A stretch of DNA of 21,656 bases, taken from a virus. The stretch lies in the UHGV virus genome UHGV-0374425, one strand, 5' to 3'. The notes beneath the pieces were generated by a model. The model saw only the letters and a program-made list of their open reading frames with translations. It did not search any database and was not told the DNA's origin. Positions 12,111-13,168 of the stretch are shown piece after piece. A program made the position numbers and the translations under genes. The number at the start of each line of letters is the position of its first letter. Position 1 is the stretch's first letter.

Positions 12111-13168
12111 TTTCCACCTCCTGCATCCCGCCCACGTTTTGCAGCCAGGGTCCAGGCTGATGAATGAGCTTCTCCGGGTTTATCTTCGGTCATACTGTTG
12201 CAGTGCCACAGCGAGCCCCCCCACGTCACCGTATCGCCGGGGTGGTAGGTTTCACCGGCTCTGAACACACCGCGGTAGAGCATCACCGGAAGGGAAAATG
12301 TTTTTTCCGTACGCTGGCCACTGCTCTGCCGGACCACCACAGAGAACAACCGTTCACCCGTCATGCTGACGTCAATATCCGCCACCCCGTCAACCAGGCA
12401 TTCCCATCCCCGCATCCCGTGCGTTTTTTCATACGCCCGCCAGAGTCCGCCCTGGTGTGTGGCATACGTGCCCCGGGGAAAGGATTTTTGATCGTCAATG
12501 GCAGGGAGTATTTCCAGTGCCGTGGCATCACGCCCGTCCTGCGGAGCCGGCAGGGCATTCACCGCCTCCAGAACCGCCTTCCGCAGTACTTCCGGATCGT
12601 AATCACGACCATCACGCGGAGCAGGGATATGACTTACGGCCTCTTTCACCATCTGCTCAAGCATCGGACGCACATCATCGGGGGTAATACTTTTACCGTC
12701 CGCCGGTACAGGAATATTTGCGACCGCATCATTCACCGCCTTCTGCAATACTTCCGGATCGTAGTCACGACCATCACGCGGAACAGGAATATGGCTTACC
12801 GCCTCCTTCACCATCTGTTCAAGCATCGGACGCACATCATCCGGGGTAATACTTTTGCCGTCCGCCGGTACAGGAATATTTGCGACCGCATCATTCACCG
12901 CCTGCTGCAGTACATCCGGATCATAATCACGACCATCACGCGGTACCGGAATGGCCCCCACAGCCTCATCCACCATCGCCTGCAGAACCGGACGCACCTC
13001 ATCCACCGTCACATGCTTCTGTAATACCGCCGACAGGGAAATCAGTTTCTCTTCAAACGCTTGTGCCTGCGAGGCCATCTTCCCCTCAAATGTGCGCTGT
13101 AAATCCGCCAGCACTGTGGAGAATTCTTCACCCAGCGCACGGATAATGGACAGTTCACGTTCATTCAT
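12107..13168 (-). CDS. Phage structural-region protein with three tandem 54-aa repeats; function unknown
   Basis: 353 aa; repeats VRPMLEQMVKEAVSHIPVPRDGRDYDPEVLQKAVNDAVANIPVPADGKSITPDD; coiled-coil-like N-terminus; Trp/Gly-rich C-terminal domain; ATGA overlaps with both neighbours. Confidence 0.5.
   Translation of the reverse strand: MNERELSIIRALGEEFSTVLADLQRTFEGKMASQAQAFEEKLISLSAVLQKHVTVDEVRPVLQAMVDEAVGAIPVPRDGRDYDPDVLQQAVNDAVANIPVPADGKSITPDDVRPMLEQMVKEAVSHIPVPRDGRDYDPEVLQKAVNDAVANIPVPADGKSITPDDVRPMLEQMVKEAVSHIPAPRDGRDYDPEVLRKAVLEAVNALPAPQDGRDATALEILPAIDDQKSFPRGTYATHQGGLWRAYEKTHGMRGWECLVDGVADIDVSMTGERLFSVVVRQSSGQRTEKTFSLPVMLYRGVFRAGETYHPGDTVTWGGSLWHCNSMTEDKPGEAHSSAWTLAAKRGRDAGGGK
12494..12980. 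repeat. Tandem direct repeat, unit about 162 bp, three copies, inside the 12107-13168 gene
   Basis: A near-identical block of about 80 bp recurs at 12655-12735 and 12817-12897; period 162 bp = 54 codons. Confidence 0.75.

Follow-up and report, generated by a model that had tools for sequence, protein, structure and literature searches.

The DNA analysed here (the window) is the whole 21,656-nt stretch of UHGV virus genome UHGV-0374425, which is 99.9–100% identical to a lambdoid prophage of Escherichia coli CP55_Sichuan (NZ_CP053731.1) and encodes, on its minus strand, a 353-aa protein with an internal array of tandem repeats (open reading frame (ORF) 12107–13168, −; referred to as X). Genes on this strand run in the order terminase large subunit, protease–capsid fusion, a 73-aa ORF, portal, X, head–tail connector and head closure, followed 3′ of the latter by a gp10-like gene, tail completion, major tail protein, chaperones and tape measure. 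X begins within an ATGA overlap between the portal stop codon and its own start codon (TGA/ATG; 13165–13168, −), an arrangement that recurs at the related loci L086, L090, L092, L094 and L096 and suggests that portal and X may be translationally coupled; at the other end, the GTG start of a connector gene of the Phage_connect_1 type (11784–12110, −) overlaps the X stop codon. In NZ_CP053731.1 the Prokaryotic Genome Annotation Pipeline (PGAP) merges portal and X into a single 2,423-nt 'phage portal protein, frameshifted', GenBank records annotate X as 'portal protein (pseudogene)', and the PHROGs families of X (phrog_1289) and of its portal-fused form (phrog_2271) are both labelled 'portal protein'. 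Since phrog_1289 matches X over its full length (E=2e-177, aa 1–353 against profile positions 1–331 of 331), X is a member of this family, which is also the best match of 10 distant homologues; its label appears to have been transferred from fused genes.

With a period of 162 bp, Tandem Repeats Finder (TRF) reports an array at 12573–12952 (2.3 copies, 91% matches, score 648) and an extended one at 12573–13004 (2.7 copies, 87%), and a repeat finder places three in-register copies at 12561–13046 (100/90/63% identity). A preliminary description of the window had proposed three tandem 162-bp repeats at 12494–12980 within a 353-aa ORF; both the array, whose third copy is half-degenerate, and the length of the ORF are borne out, and the coordinates are essentially right, being shifted by about 20–30 nt. 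As defined by repeat search and alignment in codon register, unit 1 (12791–12952, −; aa 73–126) consists of half-unit A (IPVPRDGRDYDP plus a helix) and half-unit B (IPVPADGKSITP plus a helix), and is followed by unit 2 (12629–12790, −; aa 127–180), which is 92% identical to it in nucleotide sequence. Unit 3 (12473–12628, −; aa 181–232), placed by codon-register alignment, has a conserved A half and a degenerate B half that runs into the C-terminal domain, and resembles the others well only across its first ~60 nt; upstream of unit 1 lies a degenerate, partial B-type half-unit (12953–13033, −; aa 46–72) with 54% nucleotide identity to the B units.

Units 1 and 2 are identical at 149 of 162 nt, with a best 80-nt window of 78/80 that agrees with the 'about 80 bp' of near-identity first described; a chance repeat was rejected, since none of 10,000 shuffles equalled this match. 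Eleven of the 13 codons that differ between the two units do so synonymously and two non-synonymously, which implies that the units are under purifying selection. Each 54-aa unit is in turn made of two related half-units with a mutual identity of ~33%; these combine an IPxPxDG loop with a helix of 13–17 residues, and are 25 and 29 aa long.

Among IMG/VR loci and retrieved phage and prophage records, X is 245, 353, 405/407, 461 or 569 aa long and a 299-aa allele is implied by 900-bp matches, so that its lengths follow a series of 245+54n aa (n = 0–6), that is 1–7 units. Length differs between loci with identical 500-nt flanks, and does so in both states (G5 and G6, described below) of a G tract at the portal/X junction; degraded alleles, carrying a nonsense or frameshift mutation, account for 3 of 87. 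An in-frame unit of 162 bp (54 codons), 92% inter-copy identity and varied copy number among close relatives mark X as a variable number of tandem repeats (VNTR) coding locus. In its shortest allele the upstream degenerate half-unit abuts the last unit directly, which is the product expected of unequal recombination within the array. Unequal recombination or slippage among the near-identical units would add or remove blocks of 54 aa, shifting the length of the repeat stalk in 54-aa steps and leaving both protein ends untouched. Of 5,426 complete E. coli genomes, 1,247 have the gene, frequently more than once; as a result of such multiple prophage copies and of the 162-bp repeats it often lies at contig ends in draft assemblies, and the top database matches to X are mostly 'partial' proteins on short contigs.

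The structure of X was predicted by AlphaFold2 (AF2) with a 102-sequence alignment, yielding a model with a mean predicted local distance difference test (pLDDT) score of 81; a single-sequence prediction (pLDDT 38.6) was discarded. In the N-terminal region (12953–13168, −; aa 1–72), a long helix (aa 3–50, pLDDT about 90–95) is followed by a second one (aa 55–71) inside the degenerate half-unit. At the opposite end of the stalk, the C-terminal β domain (12110–12472, −; aa 233–353), which is the most conserved part of the protein and spans about aa 220–345 of the model with a pLDDT of 97–98, comprises two modules similar to carbohydrate-binding module (CBM) families 5/12 and contains the motif Y-x-x-G-D-x-V-x-W-x-G-x-x-W twice. 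Foldseek searches of the PDB superpose this domain of the AF2 model on solved CBM5/12 domains (2d49, 2rts, 7b5h_AE and also ChiB; probability 1.00, root-mean-square deviation 1.9–2.3 Å, 47–51 residues), indicating that its predicted fold is that of CBM5/12, and align tandem-CBM chitin deacetylases over about 125 columns. Further PDB matches include fibre proteins of Agrobacterium phage 7-7-1 and of Milano, a tail fibre of cyanophage A-1(L) and a baseplate protein of the Anabaena contractile injection system (CIS), and those in BFVD include phage proteins with collagen repeats and tail fibres bearing ChiC-type knobs. At the sequence level, X remains below the Pfam CBM_5_12 (PF02839) threshold (21.5 bits at aa 303–325, against a cut-off of 26.2) and its relatives score 21.9–24.7 bits; W and Y positions are conserved in the CBM-like domain. 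When the PDB was searched by sequence with X or the family profile, matches to designed helical repeats were attributed to compositional bias and not homology, and apart from these only the CBM motif was matched.

At least four consecutive Gly-X-Y (GXY) triplets are found in 67 of 150 representative homologues, in runs of 4–21 triplets that lie in the stalk and/or directly behind the C-terminal domain and that, in the inspected examples, are located at the PxPxDG loops or directly after the knob formed by this domain. The X protein of the window has no GXY run of four or more triplets, only DGRD/DGKS remnants, and is as such not collagen-like. Because many relatives have these loops expanded to GXY runs, a trimeric fibre is the most likely form of X; the loops of the E. 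coli protein would then represent minimal versions of collagen-like segments.

On its own, X is unmatched by the portal models of Pfam and NCBIfam. Consistent with this, coverage of an 859-aa portal–X fusion (see below) by TIGR01537/PF04860 is confined to aa 45–388, and PDB portal matches (8cez, 9lbn) end by about aa 420. Nor does X match Phage_Mu_F (PF04233) at E≤1. X is thus a gene that is conserved, under selection and linked to that of the portal, but by the tests run its product is not itself a portal, a MuF/gp7 or a scaffold protein.

The junction between the two genes is shaped by a tract of five G residues (G5; 13180–13184, −), located 12 nt upstream of the X ATG and forming the Arg-Gly codons of the portal (AGG GGG), as well as the probable Shine–Dalgarno (SD) sequence of X. 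The portal gene of the window ends in ...ATG TTC AGG GGG ATA CTG CGA AAA TGA, with X starting at the ATG of ATGA. An SD-like purine tract precedes the X start in most of the distant relatives checked, and in the nearest ones the position of the G tract is taken by GAGGGGG (L086) or AGAGGA (Salmonella phage FSL SP-016); judged from these sequences, the tract probably doubles as the X ribosome-binding site. In phages WGPS6, 2851 and YYZ-2008, one extra G (AGGGGGG; G6) puts X in frame with the portal, giving portal coding sequences of 2,580–2,586 nt and, in WGPS6 and 2851, a fusion protein of 859 aa; G5 and two ORFs are instead found in BP-4795, 1717, Lys8385Vzw and a uropathogenic E. coli prophage. 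The 80 IMG/VR loci divide into 54 with G5, 25 with G6 and one that is cut at the junction, and among complete E. coli records an exact G6 81-mer is present in 747 and identical flanks with G5 in 29. Both states occur on each of two 500-nt flank haplotypes, and the fused alleles retain the ATG and SD-like tract of X.

Because X is separate in distant relatives and only one of the 150 homologues has a portal domain, we conclude that two genes constitute the ancestral state, and G6 a derived fusion that kept the X start codon; within a single E. coli lineage, an added G in AGGGGG joins X in frame to the portal C-terminus. Both G states have been reported in phages described as viable, whether plaque-forming or lysogenising. 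BP-4795 (G5) and 2851 (G6) are reported to be infective (Creuzburg 2005; Strauch 2008). Lys8385Vzw, which combines G5 with the shortest X, was plaque-purified on strain WG5 (PMC7946995).

These data bear on the view, taken by PGAP and Ogura et al., that X is simply the non-functional 3′ half of a long portal gene broken by a frameshift, which we consider very improbable. The 'frameshifted' flag, the pseudogene label in GenBank and the scoring of the Sakai Sp6, Sp9 and Sp12 portals as defective all speak for it; the PGAP call follows from G5 yielding two overlapping genes where G6 yields a fusion. Against it, the two-gene state is the rule in distant relatives and isolated phages; X has its own ATG, SD-like tract and ATGA overlap; the G5 state in RefSeq corresponds exactly to a full-length 454-codon portal ORF plus X, and plaque-forming Lys8385Vzw is likewise G5; and the repeats are under purifying selection. 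A portal pseudogene is thus already contradicted by two-gene relatives, start signals, a viable G5 phage and selection. Asadulghani et al. rated the Sp6, Sp9 and Sp12 portals as defective, although DNA of Sp6 and Sp9 was packaged or transferred (PMC2669165); this Sakai portal 'defect' may be explained in part by the G5 two-gene arrangement.

The same tract could also be a site of programmed frameshifting or phase variation, by which one phage would make the portal by itself, X by itself and, in smaller amounts, the fusion protein. If tRNA-Gly slipped by −1 on G GGG G, beside a rare AUA codon, the product would be exactly the fused sequence FRGDT..., and G5 and G6 are found on identical 500-nt haplotypes. 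However, the G tract lacks an X XXY YYZ heptamer, the RNA structure downstream of it is not significant (fold z = −1.45), the slippery run is absent from FSL SP-016, which has AGA GGA there, and the G state is largely linked to haplotype. On account of the non-canonical site, the z value and the missing run in FSL SP-016, programmed frameshifting was rejected, and the wider proposal is in our view improbable.

HMMER searches of 1.84 billion representative proteins, with clusters defined at 50% identity, identified 5,693 clusters of X homologues at E≤1e-3 and 2,752 at E≤1e-10. Members of the family are mostly stand-alone proteins of 250–600 aa with variable repeat numbers, reaching ~20 units in homologue P0124 and ~25 in the portal-fused P0253; among the 150 representatives, 148 are stand-alone and a portal domain is present in P0253 alone. 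A second homologue search, made with a more diverse profile, again returned mainly partial E. coli sequences and brought in hardly anything new. The label PF28083 appears in precomputed domain tables of the E. coli relatives.

In nine distant contexts, including the isolated phages FSL SP-016 and RHph_X2_26, X is found 3′ of an HK97-type portal gene and 5′ of connector or head-closure/completion genes; it follows the portal immediately in all of them but one (L085), where a PKD/LamG gene intervenes, and its start frequently overlaps the portal stop. The C-terminal domain, portal and capsid are 67%, 58% and 74% identical to those of L086, and 45%, 44% and 45% identical to those of L088; overall, the domain is 45–67% identical in relatives whose portals are 44–68% identical, and the N-terminus is the least conserved region of X (31–38% over longer alignments). 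The slot beside X is occupied by the PKD/LamG adhesin-like gene in L085 (6357–7991), by Maf-like, hexapeptide-transferase and methyltransferase genes in L089 (5294–8186) and by a DUF4376 gene in L088 (6777–9976), which suggests that it is a hot spot for virion-surface or glycosylation functions. P0253 (L098/L099, 5001–8714) is a 1,237-aa portal–X fusion whose units have the form LPxPEPLPDI plus helix; it is identical on four contigs, the longest of ~115 kb, from at least two separate metagenome data sets, and is a portal fusion independent of E. coli G6 and much longer.

We regard it as somewhat probable that X is a trimeric accessory fibre of the portal vertex, which is made together with the portal protein and whose stalk length is set by the repeats. 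In such a fibre, a long helix at the N-terminus would be followed by 27-aa modules in varying number, two to each DNA repeat and each pairing a short helix with a Pro-rich PxPxDG loop, and then by a C-terminal knob of two CBM5/12-like β modules, whose reach would be set by the stalk. We infer that X forms part of the virion, at its portal vertex, and that its knob may bind a glycan or another conserved partner. As for its location, we lean towards an exposed neck- or whisker-like fibre, at about an even chance; a position inside the capsid, on the portal crown, appears distinctly less likely, with other roles accounting for the rest. The exposed, fibritin-like neck fibre is favoured by the fold, the collagen-like relatives and the adhesin-like neighbouring genes.

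Several points weigh against such a fibre. No virion proteomics or imaging of X was found in the literature on Pankowvirus-type phages, portal extensions or neck fibres, nor any paper describing X; the main text of a mass-spectrometry paper on phage phi330 is silent on the portal, and the peptide-coverage maps described there cover short-tailed phages only. The stalk, in which the repeat helices are split by 12-residue loops, is predicted with moderate confidence (pLDDT 50–75) in a single-chain model. The knob is conserved like portal and capsid and the N-terminus is the least conserved region, the reverse of typical host-range fibres. X is also acidic (pI about 5, net charge −16), which is indecisive as to location. 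Moreover, two lineages, E. coli G6 and P0253, have independently joined X in frame to the portal C-terminus. In all solved portals, to our knowledge, this end points into the capsid, so that a fused X cannot be an external fibre unless free X is also produced from an internal start, or unless the fusion abolishes a function that the phage can do without. Since fused alleles keep the X start site, free X may still be made from them, which would reconcile the outside and inside views. Two other candidates were discarded: a tail-fibre or host-range protein, given the wrong module and a knob that is too conserved, and a DNA-binding internal protein, given the acidity of X.

The fusions bring into play an internal appendage of the portal crown, in which the N-terminal helix of X would continue from, or dock on, the portal C-terminus and project into the capsid to a length set by the repeats, resembling the portal barrel of P22 or the inner cores of podoviruses. 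That independent portal–X fusions are kept with intact ORFs, that the X start overlaps or closely trails the portal stop in most contexts and that X evolves at about the same rate as portal and capsid all argue for this arrangement, and Baumann, Mullaney and Black reportedly found in 2006 that C-terminal GFP fusions to T4 gp20 are tolerated inside the head. Fusions are, however, rare outside E. coli (1 of the 150 representatives), and fused alleles keep the X start codon and SD-like tract; furthermore, exposed fibres are the only setting in which CBM5/12-like knobs on coiled-coil or collagen-like stalks are known to us, and we know of no siphovirus precedent for an internal portal appendage. 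We therefore consider an internal appendage possible but unlikely. More doubtful still is a specific form of it, in which X, as a trimeric coiled-coil/collagen-like fibre with a CBM-like knob, would work while attached to the capsid-interior end of the portal, its 12 tails gathered into 4 trimers, as a new siphovirus portal appendage or ring organiser whose length would be tuned by the VNTR and whose attachment would be toggled between covalent and non-covalent by the slippage-prone G tract.

Coupling to the portal would also fit an assembly factor that is not part of the virion, that is a portal-tethered, oligomerising or scaffold-like protein which would aid portal-ring formation or shell nucleation and then be removed by the capsid-fused protease. 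The lineage has no separate scaffold gene and its capsid is a protease–capsid fusion, X is helical and acidic besides being portal-coupled, and in P22 portal oligomerisation is triggered by scaffold (PMC5529062). That the knob is conserved to the degree of a portal also speaks for an assembly role, as it does for an internal crown appendage. A conserved tandem CBM-like β domain and collagen-like segments are nevertheless foreign to known scaffolds, and a range of 1–7 units, with about 25 in P0253, would be odd for a geometric assembly role, making an assembly factor rather improbable.

The portal gene adjoining X is interrupted in the window, where its C-terminal 332 codons (13165–14163, −; HK97-type portal) and an N-terminal fragment of 111 codons (14388–14723, −) are separated by an inverted block (14152–14400). 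Within the region 14056–14498, these 249 nt read as the usual sequence in reverse complement, between inverted duplicates of 103 nt and 98 nt (100% and 99% complementary). For the same strain, RefSeq lacks the block and has a normal portal ORF of 1,365 nt in its place, and the inverted-block junction is absent from all 5,426 complete E. coli genomes; the block probably arose as an artefact, by fold-back or in assembly, or else as a private rearrangement. Another small inversion with respect to RefSeq affects window positions 1–141, which are the reverse complement of adjacent NZ_CP053731.1 sequence (L001 889–1029) and lie within a tail assembly gene.

Elsewhere in the window, the major capsid protein (14935–16872, −; 645 aa) is a fusion in which a coiled-coil linker joins an S78 prohead protease to a capsid domain of the HK97 fold; its gene lies upstream of the portal and not after it, a permuted order that is kept in all distant relatives with X. 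The major tail subunit (9857–10573, −) appears, by eye, to have a C-terminal Ig-like domain (…GGTPPYKHAWKKDG…YTCEV…), and its relatives are named 'immunoglobulin domain-containing protein' in RefSeq. The tail module also holds an Arc-family repressor, a ClpP-like protease subunit and a protein with a P22AR C-terminal domain (1214–3226), and a full ompC porin gene lies between minor-tail genes (4178–5341, −). As OmpC is the receptor of phi330, a related Pankowvirus (PMC12502783), the phage-borne porin might alter superinfection.

The preliminary description is thus supported in part. Copy-number change among related prophages, which it had anticipated, is evident from alleles of 245–569 aa, some of them on identical flanks, and the family that it did not recognise is indeed claimed by no characterised family in Pfam or NCBIfam. 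Its guess of a decoration or fibre protein agrees with the fibre-like build seen in AF2, Foldseek and GXY analyses, but did not foresee the topological problem posed by the portal fusions. It missed the 'portal' labels, the G5/G6 tract, the existence of a large portal-linked family and the fact that the 'portal' next to X in the window is only a fragment left by the local rearrangement.

In summary, a very common E. coli prophage gene goes under the wrong name of 'portal protein', and where it keeps the ancestral two-gene form it is treated as a pseudogene with a frameshift, which inflates the counts of 'defective' prophages, including Shiga toxin (Stx) phages and the Sakai Sp prophages. The family of X is large, uncharacterised and portal-linked, with a confidently predicted glycan-binding-like knob and a stalk that gains or loses length within very short evolutionary times, and in lambdoid Stx phages X may serve as an accessory adhesin or an appendage of the portal; the stable fusion of a fibre-like module to the interior-facing end of a portal represents a topological puzzle.

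Compared with known systems, X is contiguous with a portal of the HK97 family (PF04860/TIGR01537), and part of the same polypeptide in G6 alleles, but forms an appended or neighbouring module that portal models do not match. Its position directly after, or fused to, the portal C-terminus and its long helix next to the crown recall the P22 portal barrel and SPP1 gp7/Mu gpF, and X is likely made at portal-like levels; these proteins, however, lack the β-rich CBM-like knob and Pro-rich repeats of X. With T4 fibritin (Wac), SPP1 gp12 and collagen-like minor tail proteins X shares helices interrupted by loops, a C-terminal knob and a variable length, as well as a gene beside those of the neck and relatives with GXY runs; fibritin and collagen-like fibres nonetheless have no sequence homology to X, and fibritin is never fused to a portal. 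The knob fold and its twofold motif are those of CBM5/12 modules and fibre tips, such as the chitin-binding domains of ChiB/ChiC, the fibres of 7-7-1 and Milano and All3316 of the Anabaena CIS; in X, however, the modules, whose fold is predicted and whose sequence score is sub-threshold, are embedded in a larger conserved domain of 120 aa that is unusually conserved across phages of different hosts. X resembles segmented or collagen-like phage fibres with CBM5/12-like tips, but differs from them by its obligatory portal linkage, occasional portal fusion and conserved knob.

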